Shown: piece by piece, positions 1,283 through 44,924 of the stretch | Position numbering within the stretch: position 1 is the first letter of the stretch | Layout: every line of letters begins with the position of its first letter | Source of the DNA: Myxococcota bacterium | Lineage (GTDB): Bacteria > Myxococcota_A > UBA9042 > PHBI01 > JAWLBL01 | NCBI GenBank assembly: GCA_041687695.1 | Contig: JAWLBL010000022.1 | Coordinates: 1-64,000 of the forward strand | Reading direction: 5' to 3' | Length of the DNA: 64,000 nt | Notes under the pieces: generated by a model | Databases searched by the model: none | What the model was told of the DNA's origin: nothing | Seen by the model: the letters and a program-made list of their open reading frames with translations, nothing else | Program-made: the position numbers and the translations under genes

Positions 1283-2386
1283 ATGCTCCATCGCCTCATC
1301 GCCCTCGCGTTGCTGCTGCTCACCGCCCCCGCCGCCCTCGCCAACGACGGCACCTGGGGCGGCACCGGCTCGGATCTGGTCCCGCTCGAGGAGAAGCGCA
1401 TCCGCATGGCCCGCGAGGACATCCTCATCGAGTACGTCCCGGTGAAGAAGTACGGCCCACGCTGGCTCATCACCGCCAACTACGAGTTCCACAACCCGAC
1501 CGACGCGTCGGTCACGGTCGTCATGGGCTTCCCCGAGCGCTTCTGCGACGGCGAGAGCGACTGCGGCAGCCCCGACAACCACCACACCTTCTTCGACATG
1601 AAGACCACCGTCGACGGCAAGCCCGCCCCGGTCCGCATCGGCAACGTCTCGCGCGAGGCCCACGACTGGGCCCCCGAGCTGGGGCGCGTCCACCTCTTCG
1701 ACGTGACCATCGCCCCCGGAGCGACCACCAAGGTGGTCCACACCTACCACCACGGCTACGCCGGCTCGTCGATGGGCGACTCGTCGCTGTACTACATCAC
1801 CAAGACCGGCTCCTTGTGGAACGGGCCCATCGACCACGCTCGCTTCACCATCCGCTTCCCCTACCGGCCCTGGGGGCTGGTCTACCCCAAGACCTACAAC
1901 CTCAAGTCCTACGCCACGCGCGGCCGCGCCGGAAAGCTCTCGACCGAGCTCGTCTTCGAGCAGGAGCGCTGGACCCCCACCCAGGACCTCTACCTGTCCT
2001 TCGGCTCGCCCATGACCCTGGGCTCCGACTGCCCTCAGATCCACCCGGCCATGCTCGGTGAGGCGCTCGAGACGCCCTCGCTGGCCGCCGCCCGCGAGCA
2101 CTTCGGTCAGCTCGACGACGACGCCCTGCGCCGCTGCCGCAATCTGCCCTACGCCGTCCACGGCTATGCCTTCAAGGACAAGGAACTCCAGAAGTTCTTC
2201 TATCGGCCCGGTCTCGCCGTCAGCGGCCTGTTCGACAGCACCGGCGAGCCCAAGGAGCACCTCTATCTGCCGTTCTACCCCAACCCCAGCTTCGAGCCGG
2301 GCCAGCTCGGCAAGGACGAGCACGCCTACATCAAGCTCGTCCAGCTCCTAGAGGCCGAGCGCAAGAAGGCCAGTCGATCCAAATGA
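1283..2386 (+). CDS. Exported DUF4424-like protein with C-terminal YARHG-like domain
   Basis: Signal peptide ending ALA-NDG; IRMAREDILI start typical of DUF4424; LRRCRNLPYAVHGYAFKDKELQKFF matches YARHG pattern; strong GC3 bias. Confidence 0.75.
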   Translation: MLHRLIALALLLLTAPAALANDGTWGGTGSDLVPLEEKRIRMAREDILIEYVPVKKYGPRWLITANYEFHNPTDASVTVVMGFPERFCDGESDCGSPDNHHTFFDMKTTVDGKPAPVRIGNVSREAHDWAPELGRVHLFDVTIAPGATTKVVHTYHHGYAGSSMGDSSLYYITKTGSLWNGPIDHARFTIRFPYRPWGLVYPKTYNLKSYATRGRAGKLSTELVFEQERWTPTQDLYLSFGSPMTLGSDCPQIHPAMLGEALETPSLAAAREHFGQLDDDALRRCRNLPYAVHGYAFKDKELQKFFYRPGLAVSGLFDSTGEPKEHLYLPFYPNPSFEPGQLGKDEHAYIKLVQLLEAERKKASRSK

Positions 2387-2400
2387 GTTCACCGCGCGGG

Positions 2401-4326
2401 TCAAGCGGCCCGTTGCAGCCTCCGCCGTCCGACGACCTCGACGAGGGACGCCCCACCTTGCGTCCCGATGCGCCACGAGGTGCGGCCGGCGGTCCCTTCG
2501 GCCGCGATGCGCCCACCATGCAGCAGCTCGAGGTGGCAGGTCACGCACAACGCAATGACGTTGTCGGCCTCGTCGCTGCCGCCCTGCGACCGAAACACCA
2601 GGTGGTGAGGCGTGACGTCCCGCCGCGAACACACCGGGTTGCTGCACTGCCAGCGGTCACGTCGGTAGATCTCCCGATACCGGACCTCCTCATCCAGCGT
2701 GTGCCCCCAGGCCTTCCACACTGACGCGACCAGGAAGGCGATGAAGCTGGCTCCCACGCCCGTCCGTCGCCACTCGCGCCTGACCCGCTGCCAGAACTCG
2801 GCGACGTCGGCGCGCAGCCGGAGTCGCACGGTCACCGTCCCGGCCCCGCTCCGCAGCACCAGGCGTTCATCGTCCTGAGATGCGGACATCTGGATCGTCT
2901 GCGGCGTCGAGTCGCCGTCATCCTGGCCAGGGGCGTCCGCGTCCTTGGTTGGAGCGGGCGTGCCGTCCGACTCCGAGGAGTCCCGAGCGATCTCGGGCTC
3001 CGTCCCCCTCATCGGGCCACCGGCCAGCGCCCAGGCCTCGATGGCTTGGAACTCCGCCATCAACGCGTCGCTGGGCGGCGTCGGCGCTCGCTGCTCGATG
3101 ACGGCCAGGGTCTCCACCGCGTCGACCTCCTCGCGCAAGTGCTTGACCGTCCGCTCGGTCGCCCGCGTGACCCAGGCGGCCTCGGTCCCGGCGCCCGCGA
3201 CCCGTCCCAGCAACAGCGCCGCCTCGAACCCGATGGTCCCTGCCTGCAGGGCCGCCCCCACCTCGGGCAACCGCTCGGCCCGGCGGGCCAGGGTCACTCT
3301 CGCCTTCAGCCCCGAGACCGACATCCCGACCCGTTCGCGCACGTACTGCGCCTCGCTCGCGTACCCCAGCCGCCCCCACCCGCGCGCCGCCAGAAAGCGC
3401 GCAGCGACTTCGCCCAGCGCCAGGTCTCGCCGCGCCAGCTCCGCGCACCCGGCGCGGATCACCTCGTCCAGCTCACGCTCGCCTTGTGGCAATGACTCGT
3501 CGTCCTCGTCGAGCACCGGGACCTCGACCGTCTGCATCAACTCCTCGCAGTAGGCCTCCAACTCGGCGCGCTGGGCAGCGGCAGCCTCCTGGTCGACCTC
3601 GTCCCACCTGCGCGCCGCGCCATCCTCGGAGACCGCCTCGCCCGTCAGCGCCAGGATGAGCGTGGCCGCCTCGGCGAGCATCGCGTCGACCACCTCGTCG
3701 TTGGCGGACGTCCGCGCGATCGCCCGGACCAGCCGCCGCGTCACGTCGAACATCCACGCCTCGTCCCGCGACATCGTGATCTGCAAGGTGACGCGCTCGT
3801 CTTCGGCATCGTCAGCCGTCTCCGAGGTCGCCACCGTGGCCGTCGCTCCCCCTCCGCCCTCCTTCACCATGACGCGCAGCTGCCGAACCGTCCTCGACCG
3901 CGCCAGCTCGAGCCACTCGGCCTCCGTCTCTTCGGTCGCGATTCGCCCGACTACCTCGGCCGCGCTCCACGAGATCTCGCCCCGCCTCAGCGCCTCGCGC
4001 ACCCTCGGCAACCGCGCCATCTGTCGCGCCACGACGCGCTCGCGCGCCGCCCACGCTCCGGTCCGCTCGCACCGCTCCAGCACGTACGCGCTGAAGCTGG
4101 GGAATCCCAACCGCAAGTGCCCGCCGCTGCTTCCGAGCGCCTCCAGGGCCTCGGCCACTCTCAGCCGAGCCGCCCCGACCCGCCGCCCCAACCGCACCAG
4201 AGACACGTCCATCTCGAGCAGCTGCCGCAGGCTGACCACCTCGCGCGAAGGCACCTCTCCCCGCGCCCGCGCCTCGGCCTCTTGCTTCGCACGCCACCGA
4301 GCCCATCCCGACTTCCGTTGCGTCAT
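2401..4326 (-). CDS. DUF222-like HNH endonuclease (HNH-1)
   Basis: C-terminal RDRWQC..C..HH....SQGGSD..DN...LC..CH HNH motif; two internal helical repeats (LGFPSFSAYVLER.. and LGYASEAQYVRER..). Confidence 0.85.
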   Translation of the reverse strand: MTQRKSGWARWRAKQEAEARARGEVPSREVVSLRQLLEMDVSLVRLGRRVGAARLRVAEALEALGSSGGHLRLGFPSFSAYVLERCERTGAWAARERVVARQMARLPRVREALRRGEISWSAAEVVGRIATEETEAEWLELARSRTVRQLRVMVKEGGGGATATVATSETADDAEDERVTLQITMSRDEAWMFDVTRRLVRAIARTSANDEVVDAMLAEAATLILALTGEAVSEDGAARRWDEVDQEAAAAQRAELEAYCEELMQTVEVPVLDEDDESLPQGERELDEVIRAGCAELARRDLALGEVAARFLAARGWGRLGYASEAQYVRERVGMSVSGLKARVTLARRAERLPEVGAALQAGTIGFEAALLLGRVAGAGTEAAWVTRATERTVKHLREEVDAVETLAVIEQRAPTPPSDALMAEFQAIEAWALAGGPMRGTEPEIARDSSESDGTPAPTKDADAPGQDDGDSTPQTIQMSASQDDERLVLRSGAGTVTVRLRLRADVAEFWQRVRREWRRTGVGASFIAFLVASVWKAWGHTLDEEVRYREIYRRDRWQCSNPVCSRRDVTPHHLVFRSQGGSDEADNVIALCVTCHLELLHGGRIAAEGTAGRTSWRIGTQGGASLVEVVGRRRLQRAA

Positions 4327-4352
4327 GGTCCGCTTCTCCCGTTGGACCGGCG

Positions 4353-4382
4353 ACTATGCTGCACGGGTGTTCAGTTGGTCAA
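4353..4382 (-). promoter_or_regulatory. Putative sigma70-like promoter of HNH-1
   Basis: Minus strand TTGACC-N18-CATAGT about 27 bp upstream of the ATG, preceded by an A-tract. Confidence 0.45.
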
Positions 4383-4495
4383 GAGCTTTTTTGGGGGGAA
4401 GCTCTCCATCCTCGTGGCTCAGGCGTGGGAGGGCCGCGCCCTGGGTCTCATCCCGGGTGAGTGGGCCGTGCCTTCCGCCGGGGAGCGGAGCACGC

Positions 4496-5150
4496 ATCCA
4501 GATGTCCGAATCCAGGGTCGCGATAGGCCAGGCATTGGCGCTTCAGTCCTCGACGTGTCCATCCGGATGTCCGAATCCCAGGTCGCGATAGGCTAGGGGT
4601 CGGTGGTCAGTTCTCGACGCGTCCATCCAGATGTCCGAATCCCAGGTCGCGTTCGCCAGTAGGCGTTGGCGCTCACAGTCCTTCACGCGTTCATCCTGAT
4701 GTCCGAATCCCAGGTCGCGTTCGAGCAGGCGTCGGCGCCAACAGTCCTGTCCTTCACGCGTTGATCCAGATGTCCGAATCCCAGGTCGCAATAGGCCAGG
4801 CGTCGGCGCTCAGTCCTTCACCCCGTCAATCCAGATGTCCGAATCCCAGGTCGCGATAGGCTAGGGGTCGGTGGTCAGTTCTCGACGCGTCCATCCAGAT
4901 GTCCGATTCCCAGGTCGCGATAGGCCAGGCGCCGGCGTTTCAGTCCTTCACGCGTCGATCCAGATGTCCATATCCCATGTCGCGATAGGCCAGGGGGCGG
5001 CGGTCAGTTCATGACGCGTTCATCCAGATGTCCGAATCTCAGGTCGCGATTGGCCAGGCGTTGGCGCTCAGTCCTTCACGCGTTCATCCAGAGGTCCGAA
5101 TCCGCAGTCGCGTTCAGCCACGCATCGGGGCTTCAGCCCTTCACGCCGTG
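4496..5150 (+). repeat. Tandem array of 10 units of 64-71 bp with conserved 27-nt core ATCCAGATGTCCGAATCCCAGGTCGCG
   Basis: Unit starts at 4496, 4561, 4625, 4693, 4764, 4829, 4893, 4958, 5022, 5086; linkers more variable but mutually homologous. Confidence 0.95.
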
Positions 5151-5308
5151 GCCCGTGACGATGAGACGGACTGCTCGCTGCCGCCGCATCCTGGCTCTAC
5201 GCCATCCACGGCCCCTCGAGGGAGGCCAACTCGGCCGCGACCAGGGCGACCAACTCTCGCTCGTTCAGTTCCTGCAGCGCGACCCGAAGCCGTCCCGCAA
5301 GGCCGGCT

Positions 5309-5394
5309 GACCCGCCAGCCTGCCCGGTCCAGACCCGCCAGCCTGCCCGGTCCAGACCCGCCAGCCTGCCCGGTTCCAGACCCGCCAGCCTGCC
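5309..5394 (+). repeat. 23-bp tandem repeat GACCCGCCAGCCTGCCCGGTCCA, three copies plus a partial fourth
   Basis: Directly visible; third copy has a 1-nt insertion. Confidence 0.9.
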
Positions 5395-5635
5395 GTATCG
5401 AACCGAGCCAGCGGAGGGACGCGAGCTTGCTCGCCCTTTCGCGCCGTGGCTCGCGGCCGGCCTCTACGCGATGCTGACGGGTCTGCTCGAAGGGGAGGCT
5501 ATTGAAGCATGCTGAATATGCCAGTCACGTGCGGCGAGCCGCGCGATTTCGGCCCGGTTGACGCCGTGTGCTCCAGTCCACGTCATTCGCTCGGAGGATA
5601 CGAGCTCGCTCGTGGCACCGTTCGCGCTGGCCCTC

Positions 5636-5977
5636 TCAGGGGGAGGCAAAGGGCGCTTCGGGAACTTCGGGCGCGGGGACTTCGGCCTCCGTGAGAGGGA
5701 TGGTGACGGAGCAAATGCAAACCTCCGTAGCGGCCTCGAAGCTGCATAACCAATCGTAAGGCGAGTCTCCGACGTCGGCGCAGCAGTCGGCGTCGTCGGC
5801 CACCGTGCAGTGATCCGGACAGATCTGATCGGCGACGCCATGGCAGGCCGCGATGCGCGCGGTGCCCGGCTCGATGTCTTCGAGACAGCCGGCCGGGAGC
5901 AGGGCGGCGAGCGCGAGGGCGGCGCCGAGGACTTGGCTTCGAAGCAGCGTTGCCCCTGCGTGGTTTGATAGCGACAC
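5636..5977 (-). CDS. Small Cys-rich lipoprotein
   Basis: GTG at 5977 with AGGAGG 6 nt upstream; lipobox LPAGC; CHGVADQICPDHCTVADDADCC resembles the protein at 13327-13779. Confidence 0.7.
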   Translation of the reverse strand: MSLSNHAGATLLRSQVLGAALALAALLPAGCLEDIEPGTARIAACHGVADQICPDHCTVADDADCCADVGDSPYDWLCSFEAATEVCICSVTIPLTEAEVPAPEVPEAPFASP

Positions 5978-6165
5978 GACCAGCCTCCTGGATCTTCGGG
6001 TCAGGAGGCCAGCATGCGCCGTTGGCGGGGCAAGGGCAAGGGCGATCGCCGACGCGCACGAGCTCGCTCGTGCTGAGCACCGCGCAGTCTGCTGCGTCCA
6101 AGCCGCTGGACGGCCCACGCTCGCGCGGGCTCACTTGGACCGCGCCGCCCGCGGCCCAACTGGGG

Positions 6166-6534
6166 CTATGGCTCGGAACGATCGCTTCCGTCCGAGCCGG
6201 GGGCCGACCCGGGTCTCCCTTCCATCCCGGTCGGATCGGCCATCAGCAACTCCTCGTGCAACATGAAGAGGTCGTCCATGTCCAACTGTTGCTCGCCCAG
6301 CATGTACAAGACCGAAAAGGCGGCTTCGTAGGACGCGCTCCGCACGAGGAGTGACAGGTCGCGACGCGAGGCGCCCAACGCCAGCAGTCTCTTGACGACT
6401 TCCCCTTCGTCCGAGAAGGAGCCGTTCGGTTCCAACTCCGACGCGCGGATGGAATTGTCGATCCAGTGCTCCGCCATCGCGGAGTTGATGACCTCATCCC
6501 AAACGAGCCTCAGAAACTGCTCTCTTCTCGTCAT
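6166..6534 (-). CDS. Hypothetical protein (acidic, helical)
   Basis: 122-aa ORF with RBS-like AGGAG upstream and protein-like composition; lower GC than neighbours. Confidence 0.65.
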   Translation of the reverse strand: MTRREQFLRLVWDEVINSAMAEHWIDNSIRASELEPNGSFSDEGEVVKRLLALGASRRDLSLLVRSASYEAAFSVLYMLGEQQLDMDDLFMLHEELLMADPTGMEGRPGSAPGSDGSDRSEP

Positions 6535-6572
6535 TGCAGCACGCTCTCCTGCGCTCCCGATCGGCTCTCCGA

Positions 6573-6656
6573 CGCGTGCGCGCCGACGCCCAGGAACTCA
6601 GCGCCCGCGGCGGACAACTCGGAGAACGGATCTCTGAAGTCTCGGTTGATGCCCGT
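6573..6656 (-). pseudogene. N-terminal remnant of a nucleotidyltransferase (toxin-antitoxin type)
   Basis: Reads (T)GINRDFRDPFSELSAAGAEFLGVGAHA, like the MNxDFxDxxxxLxxxxxEYLxVGxHA start of such NTases; start codon is ACG and the similarity stops after GAHA. Confidence 0.55.
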
Positions 6657-18958: not shown

Positions 18959-21900
18959 CTACTTCTTCTTGTCCTTGTCCTTCTTGCTGGACTCGCTGTT
19001 CACCTTGTCGAGGAGCTTGGCCAGCGTGAACAGGCACGAGGTGATGTACAGCGCGTCGATCTTGATCTTGCGCAAGGCGGGATGGGCTTCGCCGTGCTTG
19101 GCGAGGATGCGCTGCCACTCGGCGGCGGCGGCCTGGGCGATGTCGATCGCGCCCTGCAGCTTCGTCCAGTTGCTGCTCATCATCGCGGTGGGGTCGTCGT
19201 TGGTCACGAGGATGCGCGCGATGTCGATGCAGTAGGCGGCGGCCGCGTGGCTGCGATCCTGGGGATCGTCCATCGCTTCGATGAGCGAGATGAGCGTGTC
19301 CTCGTACATGTTCAGGCGCGGCAGCGCGCTCAGCTGGCCCAGGACGCCGCGGCCGATGGTCAGGTGATCGGCCTGCTGCTTGGCGAGCTTCGGGTCGGCG
19401 ACGATGGTGCGCGTCTTGCCCCCGTGCTTGCCGGTCTGCTTGCTCTTGGCGTCCTTCGCCTCGGCCTCCAGCTCCTCGGGGGTGAGGGTCGAGCTGTCGA
19501 GCGAGTGGACGCCCACCTCGTGCGCCAGCAGCCCGACGGTCTGTCCCACCGAGAACGCCTCGACCTGGTAGTCGTCGAGGTTCACGGTGACGCGGTTTCC
19601 GTCGCTGGTCGTGCAGGCGATGTCATTGGTCACGGTGGGCCGAAGCCGGATGCGGATGACCAGCGGCGGCTGCCGCTCGGCGATGAAGCGCGAGCCCAGG
19701 ATCGCCTTCGCGACGCCCCGGGTCCAGGCGTCGAGCTTCTTGGACCGGCCCAGGACGTTGCCTGTCGCCTGGAACTCGATGCGGGTCCCGGCCTCGTTCT
19801 TGTCGAAGTAGTAGGTCTCGAACTCGCCACCGCGGACGATTCCCTGGCGCCCCTCGAGGATGAGGCGGACCGTCGCGAGCTGAAGCTGGGCGCTCTCGTT
19901 GCCGTCCGCGTGCTTGTCGAAGTGGCCGGCCAGCTCGATCAGTTCGTCGGTCTGCATCCCGTCGTAGATGTCGTAGAGGCCGCTCTGGTCGATCTCCTCG
20001 CGCGACTTGTCGATCTTGGGCTTGTCGCGGCGCAGCATGAGGTCGTAGACGCCCGCAAGCTCCTTGTTGTCGTCGACGCGCTTGAGGACCTCGTAGGCGT
20101 CCCAGTCGCTGCCGCCCTTCTTCAGGAACTCGCGCGTGAGGCGCTCGCGCTCCTTGATCTCGGGCAGCTCGAGCTTCTTGGAGCGGCTGAAGATGAGCTC
20201 GGAGAGGATGTCCTCGTGCAGGGTCCAGGCGGAGTCGAACGAGGTGCGCTCGTCGTCGCTGTCTTGATCGGCGTCCAGCACATAGGTGTAGAGCGTGGCG
20301 AGCGCGTACGACGGCGCCGAGTGCCCGCCCATGCGGTGCGAGCCGACGTCCACCTGCCGCGTGCGAGGGCTCATCACGCCCTCCTCGCCCGACTTGCCCT
20401 TGCCCATGTCGTCGGACTCGACCCAGCCGCCGTGGCCGTCGCGCATGACCGCCACGTAGTGGCCGCCCTCGTGGTGCGAGAAGGTGTTGCGGACGATGAA
20501 GGCCTGGAGCCGGTACCGGGGGCCGGGTCGACGCGTGCCGGTCACCGACGCTGGGAGCCGGAAGACCTCGGGCATGTCGATGTGGTCGCGGCCGCTCTGG
20601 CGGAGCATGCCGATGGAGAGCACCTCCGGGAACGAGGTGGCGCGGCGGGTCCTCTCGTGAGGGTTGGCGATGCCTACGCCGTCGCGCCGTTCGCGGGTCA
20701 CGAAGTAGGACTCGAGCGCCTCCTCGAGCGTCGCGTGGCCGACGGCGGTGAGCTGCAGGACCGTCTCCTGCATGCGGTTGTACTGCGGAGCCTGGAGCGG
20801 GTCGTCGTACACCACGGCTTCGCTCGTCTCGAGCAGCCGATCACCGGGCATGATGCGCTGCAAGATCGCCATCAGGACCTGGCTGGCGTCCTGCTGCTGC
20901 GTGACCCCGCCGACCAGCAGGCCCAGGGAGTCGAGCACGCCCAGCAGGTGGCGGACCTGCTTGGCCGGAACCGTCTCGTTGCCGCGCAGGGTCTGCAGCA
21001 TCGGGCCGATGGTGACCTGGAGCAGGCGCGCCTCGCTGCCCTCCTGCGTACGGTTGACGAGCGGATCGAACATCCGCCGGTACGCGGGTACGGCGGCGAT
21101 GAGGTTCAGCAGACTGGCCGCGTAGCAGCTGTTCTGGACGTGCTCGACGCCGCCCCCCGAGCGCGCCTCGACCTCGACCGCGTCGCCGTTTTCGAGCATC
21201 GGCAGCGCGCGGTCGAAGGTGAAGGTGCTCGTCGCGAGCGTGAGGAACAGATCGCGGATCTGCGGCGCCGACTTCGGAAGCGGCTCGGACTCGGGCATGA
21301 GCTTGAGCCCGAGCAGGACGGTTGCGAAGACGCTCGGGTCGATGCTCAGGACCTGGACGAGCGGCTCGTCGCGGTGGCGCAGGACCAGGGCCCGTACATC
21401 GTGCTCGCCCTTTCGTTCGAGCTGGCCCTTGAGCCACATGAGGTACTTCTGAACGCGCGCGGGGAGCTGCGCGAAGATGCTGCTCAGCAGCCGTAGGTTC
21501 TGCTGGTAGTGACTCAGCAGGACCAACGCCTGCTGTTGCGAGGGCACCTCGTCGCCGTCCTCGCCCTCTTCCTTGTTCCCGAGGCCGTGTCCCCCCTTGC
21601 GCTGGACCGCAGGCGTGCCCGCACCCGACGCGGCAGGCTGCGGCGCGAAGGTGTCGAGGAGGGCCTCGGCCGACTCGCCGCTGACCACCCGGTCCGCGAC
21701 CGCGTCGGCGTTGCGTTCGTAGTCGTCGCCCGAACGTCCGAGCCCCCCTTCGAGCTGGACCCCGGCGCGCTGCTGGACGACGTGTGCCGCCTCGTGCGCC
21801 GCAGTGTGCAGGCTCGGCGCCGATTGAAAAGCCACCTTGTTGCCCGTCGCGTAGGCCTCGGCGCCGAGCGCGCTGGCCGCGCTGGCCGCCGCGCCGCCGG

Positions 21901-22198
21901 TGTGCGCCTCGATGCCGCTGACGTCGTGTCGACCGAAGCTACGTTGGATGCGATCGGCGTGGGGCAGGGGTCCCGCGCCGCCGGAGGTCCCCTGCGCCGC
22001 AACTTCCGTGGGCGCGGCCGGCTGCAGCGAGCGCTCGGCGGCGCCCCCGGGGGTCAACGCTGCGCGCCCCTCGTCATAGCTCATCGCCTGCAGCGACTTG
22101 CGGAAGACGCCCAGCCGGTCGCCCGACGAGACGGCCGCAGCCGGCTCATCGCGCGTCGTTTGGTCCCGTCGCGCGTCCGATTCCACTCGCTGAGTCAT
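18959..22198 (-). CDS. DUF4157 (eCIS core) protein with USP/peptidase C19-like domain
   Basis: DUF4157 motif [21 protein letters not shown] Cys box NSCY, QQDA, His box GGHYVA..WVESDD. Confidence 0.85.
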
Positions 22199-44343: not shown

Positions 44344-44730
44344 GGGCGGGGTTGCTGGCCGGCTGGAAGCCGGCGATCCCAGGGGGCCGGACGCGGGGAT
44401 GGGCGGGGTTGCTGGCCGGCTGGAAGCCGGCGATCCCAGGGGGCCGGACGCGGGGATGGGCGGGGTTGCTGGCCGGCTGGAAGCCGGCGATCCCAGGGAG
44501 GCCGGACGCGGGGACGGGCGGGGTTGCTGGCCGGATGGAAGCCGGCGATTCCAGGGAGGCCGGACGCGGGGATGGGCGGAGCTGCTGGCCGGCTGGAAGC
44601 CGGCGATCCCAGGGAGGCCGGACGCGGGGTTGGACGGGGTTGCAGGCCGGCTGGAAGCCGGCGATCCCAGGGAGGCCGGACGCGGAGAGGGGCGGAGCTG
44701 CAGGCCGGCTGGGAGGCGGCGCTGCCAGGG
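44344..44730 (+). repeat. Tandem REP array, six 57-58-bp units plus one degenerate unit
   Basis: Each unit contains GGCCGGCTGGAAGCCGGCGATCCCAG or a near copy. Confidence 0.95.
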
Positions 44731-44924
44731 GGGGCGGTGGGATGCCGCCGGTGGGAGGGGCCGGACGTGGGGCGCGGTTATGGGGGCGGTGGCTTGCCGC
44801 AGTGTCGGGGGCGAAGTAGAGCTGGCGCACTTCGAGACCGAGAGGTGAGCAATGGGCGCGGGGCGGTCCCGGGACCCGGGCGCCTCGGTGCGTGCGCGGC
44901 GGGGCCGCGGGGCAGGAGCAGTTC

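Follow-up and report, generated by a model that had tools for sequence, protein, structure and literature searches.

What is a tenfold repeat of a gene's own internal sequence doing upstream of that gene? The question is raised by a stretch of 64,000 nucleotides (nt) from a Myxococcota bacterium (contig JAWLBL010000022.1, positions 1 to 64,000; hereafter the window), in which the gene for a 641-aa DUF222-HNH nuclease of the REP13E12 type (2401-4326, minus strand) is preceded by a non-coding tandem array of ten units (4496-5150, plus strand), and in which the core of these units recurs, inverted, within the coding sequence of the nuclease. Both the array and the inverted in-gene copy are confirmed as real and beyond chance. 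We hold the chances to be about even that the array is a ten-copy cluster of candidate cognate DNA sites, parS- or iteron-like, for the adjoining nuclease. On sequence comparison and modelled structure, the locus is classified as a putative selfish SOS gene that encodes a ParB-type-fold protein fused to an HNH nuclease and is accompanied by clustered cognate-type sites, one of them in its own coding sequence.

The array was delineated by Tandem Repeats Finder (4495-5146, period 64, 10.0 copies, 79% matches), repeat search and unit alignment. Its units are 64-71 nt long, with start-to-start spacings of 65, 64, 68, 71, 65, 64, 65, 64 and 64 nt across the ten copies, and each consists of a 27-nt core, ATCCAGATGTCCGAATCCCAGGTCGCG, and a linker of 37-44 nt. 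The linkers fall into two alternating types, giving a higher-order period of 129 nt, and units 2 and 6, whose linkers are identical, differ solely at core position 5. An earlier note on this DNA had described ten 64-71-bp units beginning about 170 bp upstream of the nuclease start codon, and these were found, the first core at 4496 lying 169 nt upstream of the ATG (4326). The inverted in-gene copy that it had placed at 2871-2895 (minus strand; codons I478-D485, IQMSASQD) was likewise reproduced and is non-random; this 25-mer, at the end of a disordered linker of the protein, matches unit 9 at 23/25 and the consensus units at 22/25 positions.

Scanning the window for the 27-mer with up to 3 mismatches returned 9 matches, against 0 in 100 shuffles. 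Throughout the 7.97-Mb source genome (G000), the 25-mer at the same tolerance was met in nine array units and one coding-sequence copy and nowhere else (reversed control 0; the tenth unit has more than 3 mismatches and lies outside this count), so that the core is not a scattered element. Across 401 genomes of the phylum one other 25-mer match was recorded, with 3 mismatches and antisense within a pyruvate:ferredoxin-oxidoreductase-like open reading frame (ORF), which is taken as chance. An exact 20-mer scan of metagenome contigs gave 4 single matches, without arrays and without HNH, a scan of genome contigs for the array elsewhere gave 3 single matches in other phyla, and a gapped-pattern scan of the same order returned repeats within coding sequences only.

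Conservation within the array is about threefold higher in the core than in the linkers (mismatch cells 14/270 vs 76/480), and the core ranks first of the 75 circular 27-column windows for conservation. This best-conserved block is the very stretch held in common with the coding sequence, and the similarity between gene and array is confined to it, the 40-nt flanks scoring like shuffles. All array cores differ from the in-gene copy at the same 2-3 positions; conversion from the coding sequence is therefore not what keeps the cores alike. The array itself lies in 1.84 kb without coding signal (4327-6165) between the nuclease gene, whose GC content at third codon positions (GC3) is 0.89, and a 122-aa ORF (6166-6534, minus strand); no GC3 frame signal and no long ORF were found in 4330-6165. 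A relic coding repeat with a 21-aa unit was ruled out by stops in units 2, 6 and 8 and by variation across codon positions (0.216, 0.196 and 0.166) without third-position excess. The idea that the array adjoins the remains of another HNH gene was rejected as well, full-protein and C-terminal hidden Markov models (HMMs) reaching best E values of 0.11 and 0.18 on the six frames of 4300-6600.

A conserved element of about 27 nt alternating with stretches of about 37 nt beside an HNH gene has the superficial layout of a CRISPR-like or guide-RNA array serving an RNA-guided HNH nuclease of the Cas9, IscB or TIGR-Tas type. We give this explanation next to no chance. The linkers are homologous to each other, so the array is not a classical CRISPR, a point on which the earlier note was right; six unit and dimer folds were no better than shuffles (z -0.48 to +0.95) and showed no repeat hairpin; the protein has no RuvC or Nop domain; and Rfam gave no match in 2000-6500 at E up to 1, to HEARO or any other family. 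IscB identity was rejected on the NCBIfam guided_IscB model, whose score of 33.3 bits, confined to the HNH stretch, falls far below the cut-off of 175, and on the empty Rfam result. CRISPR was rejected since there are no unrelated spacers and Pfam recognised no cas genes in 15 ORFs of window positions 1-24 kb (the contig ends 2.4 kb left of the gene).

Beyond what the earlier note had seen in it, the in-gene copy encodes a conserved Q-M/I-S protein motif in a disordered linker. Among 67 TPHH-anchored database homologues, Q-[MI]-S stands 82-127 residues ahead of TPHH in 43 (own count). For comparison at the DNA level we sampled five same-order genomes (G002, G006, G009, G010 and G017), taking 20 loci with 8 kb on either side, and searched the 401 genomes of the phylum (E up to 1e-30), where good homologues were present in 22 and a further 20 loci were taken. 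The motif 17-mer is in frame at 36 of 41 loci. Of 63 in-frame motif instances from 19 genomes, 59 write the Ser as TCC (TCA 2, TCT 1, TCG 1, AGC/AGT 0), compared with 93 of 390 Ser codons (24%) in the background of HNH-family genes, which argues that the motif DNA itself is constrained. The family DNA motif spans 12-25 nt of linker-coding DNA and reads CC(A/G)GAT(G/A)TCCG with lineage-specific flanks; it is probably a DNA site recognised by the protein. Genes of same-order genomes often carry the motif segment as an in-frame repeat of 2-5 copies with periods of 21, 24, 36, 42 and 63 nt. Being family-wide and so often repeated within same-order genes, the coding-sequence copy is ancestral and the array core derived. 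As a separate observation, the nuclease genes at loci L093/L094 (G203) and L056-L067 (G006) hold an inverted near-copy of the motif 15-17-mer in their own coding sequence, 430-800 nt upstream of the sense motif.

The earlier note had proposed that homologues should each have a flanking array matching a motif in their own coding sequence. This failed in the 20 same-order loci and held in other Myxococcota lineages. Counting each gene's own 17-mer with up to 2 mismatches in the non-HNH flanks of 41 loci, we obtained 35 copies at ten loci, against 1 in reversed controls; among the ten is the same-order locus L065, whose one flank match is a partial gene duplicate. A further 14 own-motif copies lie in HNH-homologous DNA, including inverted intragenic ones in G006 and G203. 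The source genome and at least nine other Myxococcota genomes carry copies of their own variant in nearby non-coding DNA, as single sites, clusters or tandem arrays.

The fullest example is G325, where the linker codons of the nuclease gene carry GGACAGATGTCCGG. Upstream of the gene are two inverted clusters, one of 5 copies (34/61-nt periods) and one of 3-4 copies (53-nt period, 230-470 nt before the start codon); downstream are one single copy and a 5-copy direct cluster. These clusters occupy three different intergenic regions between ordinary genes (uvrC, TetR regulator), each with its own spacers, and all 15 exact 14-mers of this 7.7-Mb genome fall within 8.9 kb around the HNH gene (control 0). 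In G164 the gene's 15-mer occurs three times upstream in direct orientation, and four of five exact genome-wide copies are at the HNH locus. Five genomes of the genus g69 carry the variant GTCCAGATATCCG (Q-I-S) in 6-19 copies per genome, co-oriented within each cluster, and almost all adjoin HNH genes: 19/19 in G100 (over 25 kb), 11/11 in G198, 10/10 in G194, 10/12 in G344 and 5/6 in G169, with 0 in controls. Orientation relative to the gene differs by lineage, flank copies being inverted in G000, mixed in G325 and direct in g69, G164 and G303. As an observation in its own right, the gene of a TetR-family regulator, 2.3 kb downstream of the HNH gene, takes its ATG and opening codons (MSG...) from a single motif copy at L099 (G325:C19, 11205-11985).

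Because the core is the best-conserved part of the array and coincides with the block shared with the coding sequence, and because flank copies are almost confined to HNH loci, we read the array as a cognate-site cluster. The protein would be the natural reader of the motif, since the latter is synonymously constrained in its gene, multiplied nearby and found almost nowhere else, and since the protein has modules of DNA-binding type. Of the two interpretations offered in the earlier note, that of a site tied to the HNH protein now has the best support, own-motif flank copies being nearly confined to HNH loci. The other, repeat RNAs with a guide-like role, fared badly: it is opposed by the lack of an Rfam match, by folds like those of shuffles and by flank copies of either orientation, some as far as 25 kb from the gene.

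Pfam recognises both DUF222 (33.1 bits, cut-off 24.4) and HNH (26.7 bits, cut-off 21.4) in the 641-aa protein. An AlphaFold2 model of the whole protein built on 57 sequences (predicted local distance difference test, pLDDT, 86.7; predicted template modelling score, pTM, 0.85) shows two similar modules in a helical N-terminal part, joined through a low-confidence linker to an HNH module at the C terminus. The first DUF222 module (residues 28-165; 3832-4245, minus strand), folded alone at pLDDT 94.1, has a helix-turn-helix (HTH) fold of the ParB/Spo0J/KorB type: its top four structural matches are all ParB-family DNA-binding domains, namely Spo0J (Z 8.6, root-mean-square deviation 2.0, 88 aligned, 24% identity), ParB-parS (Z 7.7) and KorB (Z 7.1 and 6.6), and the next unrelated row is at Z 5.7. 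The second DUF222 module (residues ~283-412; 3091-3480, minus strand) is a sequence repeat of the first, with Pfam DUF222 at residues 291-397 and the same helix pattern in the model. The disordered linker (residues 445-488; 2863-2994, minus strand; pLDDT below 50) separates this DNA-binding part from the HNH nuclease domain (residues 547-617; 2476-2688, minus strand), assigned by Pfam and by structural similarity to the HNH domains of IscB, TagI and McrA (Z 5.7-6.7). The HNH domain is intact as judged from its conserved catalytic and zinc-binding residues: C561, C566, C594 and C597 (zinc-binding) as well as H574, H575, N589 and H598 stand in columns invariant among 57 aligned sequences, window protein included. 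A whole-model Foldseek search at E up to 0.001 gave no match, and PADLOC, consulted for membership of a defence system, returned HNH-level matches only. Database homologues are all at most 49% identical and come from Myxococcota-type sources, and the family is multi-copy, with 25 matches in G006 and 4 in the source genome.

The array has several counterparts among ParB-type systems. The DNA-binding module shares the fold of ParB/Spo0J-parS and KorB-OB proteins, and cognate-type sites are clustered near the gene as in ParB-parS, KorB operators and SopB-sopC, here as a tandem array with a conserved core. sopC is a tandem centromere of plasmid F made of 12 repeats of 43 bp, and one parS of Bacillus subtilis sits inside spo0J, as the in-gene site sits inside the present gene. 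Unlike ParB-family proteins, the window protein consists of two tandem HTH modules fused to an HNH nuclease, with no CTPase domain among its matches, and unlike parS loci the window has a weakly palindromic core and no partition ATPase gene at the locus. We propose that the protein works like a ParB-family protein, and we make no claim that it belongs to that family, given that no match to a CTPase or dimerisation domain and no ParBc was obtained. In such a scheme the ParB-like modules would bind the core, and the array could act as a high-avidity landing pad upstream of the promoter described below, where it might keep that promoter repressed or insulated, retain the nuclease in cis or expose sites to nicking by the HNH domain. 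Nicking could also account for the local duplications of the site.

Several points weigh against the cognate-site cluster. The ParB likeness is at fold level only, a PDB sequence search with the first DUF222 module giving no match, and neither the N-terminal CTPase nor the C-terminal dimerisation domain of ParB was among the whole-model structure matches, nor was Pfam ParBc detected. The coding-sequence copy is also a conserved peptide motif, so its conservation is partly at the protein level. The core in the source genome, read by eye, is weakly palindromic, unlike classical parS. None of the 20 same-order loci has a non-coding array with the motif or multi-copy matches between coding sequence and flank, and the paralogue on contig C16 of the source genome has no flank copies; the family can consequently do without arrays. 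The flank copies vary together with the coding-sequence variant, as would also result from repeated copying out of the gene without any binding. Those of g69 resemble whole linker repeat units and could be relics of gene fragments; an HMM search beside them found no other HNH remnant. Finally, at least 51 tandem arrays of the source genome have a period not divisible by 3, five of them one of 64-65 nt, and in a genome so rich in non-coding minisatellites any seed is easily amplified.

These last observations bear on a neutral origin, in which a linker-coding piece of the gene, or of a decayed paralogue, was copied upstream and amplified by slippage or unequal exchange into a functionless array. 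We regard this as unlikely, although it is the foremost of the alternatives weighed here. The minisatellite background, the in-frame tandem repetition of the motif segment in homologues, the divergence of the array without codon-position bias and with stops in three units, and the same-order homologues that do without arrays all favour it. Against this stand the threefold better conservation of the core and the shared differences from the coding sequence that exclude conversion as the cause of core likeness, and there is no HNH remnant beside the array. The copied piece, moreover, is exactly the synonymously constrained motif of the family, and the pattern recurs in several genera, filling three separate intergenic regions in G325. 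The array also stands apart among these 51. It resembles the intergenic minisatellites (variable-number tandem repeats) of the source genome in being non-coding, head-to-tail and locus-specific, and is one of the five with a 64-65-nt period, but no other locus-specific array has a single match in a neighbouring coding sequence, the other nine arrays with flank matches being dispersed repeat families, paired arrays or array continuations.

The promoter of the nuclease gene adds a regulatory context. The sole promoter-like site in 4200-6600 (1 found, 0.1 expected) is a sigma-70-like TTGACC-N18-CATAGT at 4353-4382 (minus strand), with its -35 element about 110 nt from the array, and its spacer holds an SOS-box-like sequence, CTGAACACCCGTGCAGC (4358-4374, minus strand), that agrees at 16/17 positions with the Myxococcus xanthus SOS box, given as CTRHAMRYBYGTTCAGS in PMC9705874. 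With at most one mismatch this box has 13 sites in the source genome, 3 of them before DUF222 genes (on C22, C16 and C12), and the fourth DUF222 gene, on C40, has a weaker box with 3 mismatches. All four DUF222 genes thus have a sequence of the form GAAC-N4-GT(T/G)CAG between -35 and -10, the three outside the window being located at G000:C16:54229, G000:C12:174803 and G000:C40 ~19300. The nuclease gene is probably SOS-controlled, as predicted from its promoter box. Separately, at the lexA gene of the source genome GTTCAG abuts the -10.

The SOS boxes are consistent with the LexA control known for the 13E12 genes of Mycobacterium tuberculosis, where six LexA peaks lie at such genes and the majority are under direct LexA control according to PMC3381160. 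Like the window gene, these REP13E12 ('13E12 repeat') genes combine DUF222 with HNH and are multi-copy; their SOS/LexA-type control would have its counterpart in the SOS-like boxes of the source genome. They belong to a different phylum, identity reaching no more than about 45% even among Myxococcota, and the literature searched describes for them neither a gene-internal motif in flanking arrays nor a ParB-like fold.

The M. tuberculosis genes also bring in recombination. The motif might be a crossover or initiation site, such that exchange between the coding sequence and the inverted array would flip the promoter together with the N-terminal 477 codons as an on/off switch, and copies in direct orientation, such as those of g69, would mark the ends of excisable segments or cassettes. 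The inverted orientation of the array relative to the coding-sequence site agrees with this, as do the g69 copies, which are all co-oriented with gene-containing intervals of 1.5-5 kb between clusters. So do the M. tuberculosis 13E12 genes, which are frequent inversion breakpoints, at 8/19 genes (PMC13157036), and serve as (prophage) attachment sites (PMC3381160, PMC13157036). On the other hand, Pfam found no recombinase in 15 ORFs of window positions 1-24 kb or in 25 ORFs across 20 kb of the G100 site region, the assembly shows no alternative arrangement and the intergenic region no second copy, the array intervals of 37-44 nt hold no cargo, and the G325 clusters lie between housekeeping genes. 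We therefore judge recombination sites improbable. An integron-like cassette array was rejected on the same absence of a recombinase and on intervals without genes. We also set aside an equation of the motif with the attB position of phiRv1, which we take to be nearer the 3' end of the mycobacterial gene. Independently of these alternatives, at L101 (G100:C6:23000-42900) motif clusters alternate with gene-containing intervals of 1.5-5 kb that include two copies of a glycoside hydrolase family 32 gene, and these duplicate genes suggest segmental duplication.

A bolder and tentative proposal, which we think rather unlikely to hold as a whole, would make the DUF222-HNH nuclease a damage-inducible module of self-targeted rearrangement: after SOS induction it would recognise and cut the site in its own linker codons, with flank arrays serving as decoys or recombination partners. 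If true, this would explain the repeated duplication of the motif segment and its surroundings, the build-up of site clusters only around DUF222-HNH genes, and the role of 13E12 genes as inversion breakpoints in M. tuberculosis.

An antisense role for the array, in a hybrid of type I and type III toxin-antitoxin control, was also weighed. Here transcripts running through the array towards the gene, with ten anti-cores, would block or destroy the nuclease mRNA, and transcripts from the SOS promoter would lack the anti-cores. The complementarity extends over 25 nt with 2-3 mismatches, of which one can form a G-U pair, and would allow such pairing; in nine of ten units the duplex is 15-27 kcal/mol more stable than the mean of the shuffles, although the best shuffle comes close in several units and is better than the real sequence for unit 3. 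No terminator-like site was found between the upstream 122-aa gene and the HNH gene, and the product is a potentially toxic, probably SOS-controlled nuclease. Set against these are the lack of a promoter-like site for the array in 4200-6600, units without significant fold or Rfam match, and the flank copies elsewhere, which are direct (g69, G164 and G303), downstream or up to 25 kb off; we consider antisense control very improbable. ToxIN, a type III toxin-antitoxin system, has a tandem repeat RNA upstream of an endoribonuclease gene and is similar in that a tandem array directly precedes the gene of a potentially toxic nuclease. It is dissimilar in that the window nuclease is of the HNH DNA type and not ToxN/AbiQ, that a promoter lies between array and gene with no terminator found, that the units have no fold signal and that the array core and the gene's own copy run in opposite directions. 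Membership of the type III class was rejected on the missing terminator-like site, the position of the promoter, the DUF222-HNH nature of the protein and PADLOC matches at HNH level only.

REP13E12/DUF222-HNH genes are widespread, multi-copy and SOS-induced, and the literature searched contained no DNA target or mechanism for them and nothing that connects DUF222 with a ParB fold or with motif arrays in the flanks; a published text match of DUF222 with ParB turned out to be the DUF2220 of MksG. The present locus and its relatives supply a concrete candidate site, a 12-27-nt motif in the gene and in neighbouring arrays, beside modules of ParB/KorB fold. If confirmed, the nuclease would recognise a site that its own coding sequence contains and that has been amplified next to its promoter.

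Among the neighbours, the 122-aa ORF has no Pfam, NCBIfam or PADLOC match, and neither it nor the 367-aa neighbour gene has a counterpart beside HNH homologues or elsewhere in the source genome. Farther off, at 18959-22198 (minus strand), is the gene for a 1079-aa protein with an extracellular contractile injection system (eCIS) core domain and a ubiquitin C-terminal hydrolase (UCH) domain. Other repeats are also present in the window. A 23-nt unit, GACCCGCCAGCCTGCCCGGTCCA, occurs 3.7 times at 5309-5394, 160 nt past the array, with one other genome-wide match (3 mismatches). A 58-nt unit repeated 6.8 times at 44344-44737 belongs to a dispersed REP-like family with 144 other matches on 33 contigs, a copy of which lies at 6099-6158, just downstream of the 122-aa gene. 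Genome-wide, arrays with at least 4 copies, all periods included, cluster sharply by period: 46 have periods of 41-44 nt, 42 nt accounting for 21 of these, and a minor second peak of 5 arrays stands at 64-65 nt. Where 68 arrays of period 40-44 or 63-66 nt were sampled, the intergenic ones were flanked by convergent genes in 21 cases and by divergent genes in 7. Most array units of the source genome are locus-unique, and many contain palindromes (e.g. C9:43940-44558, C8:161087-161508 and C5:98073-98452).

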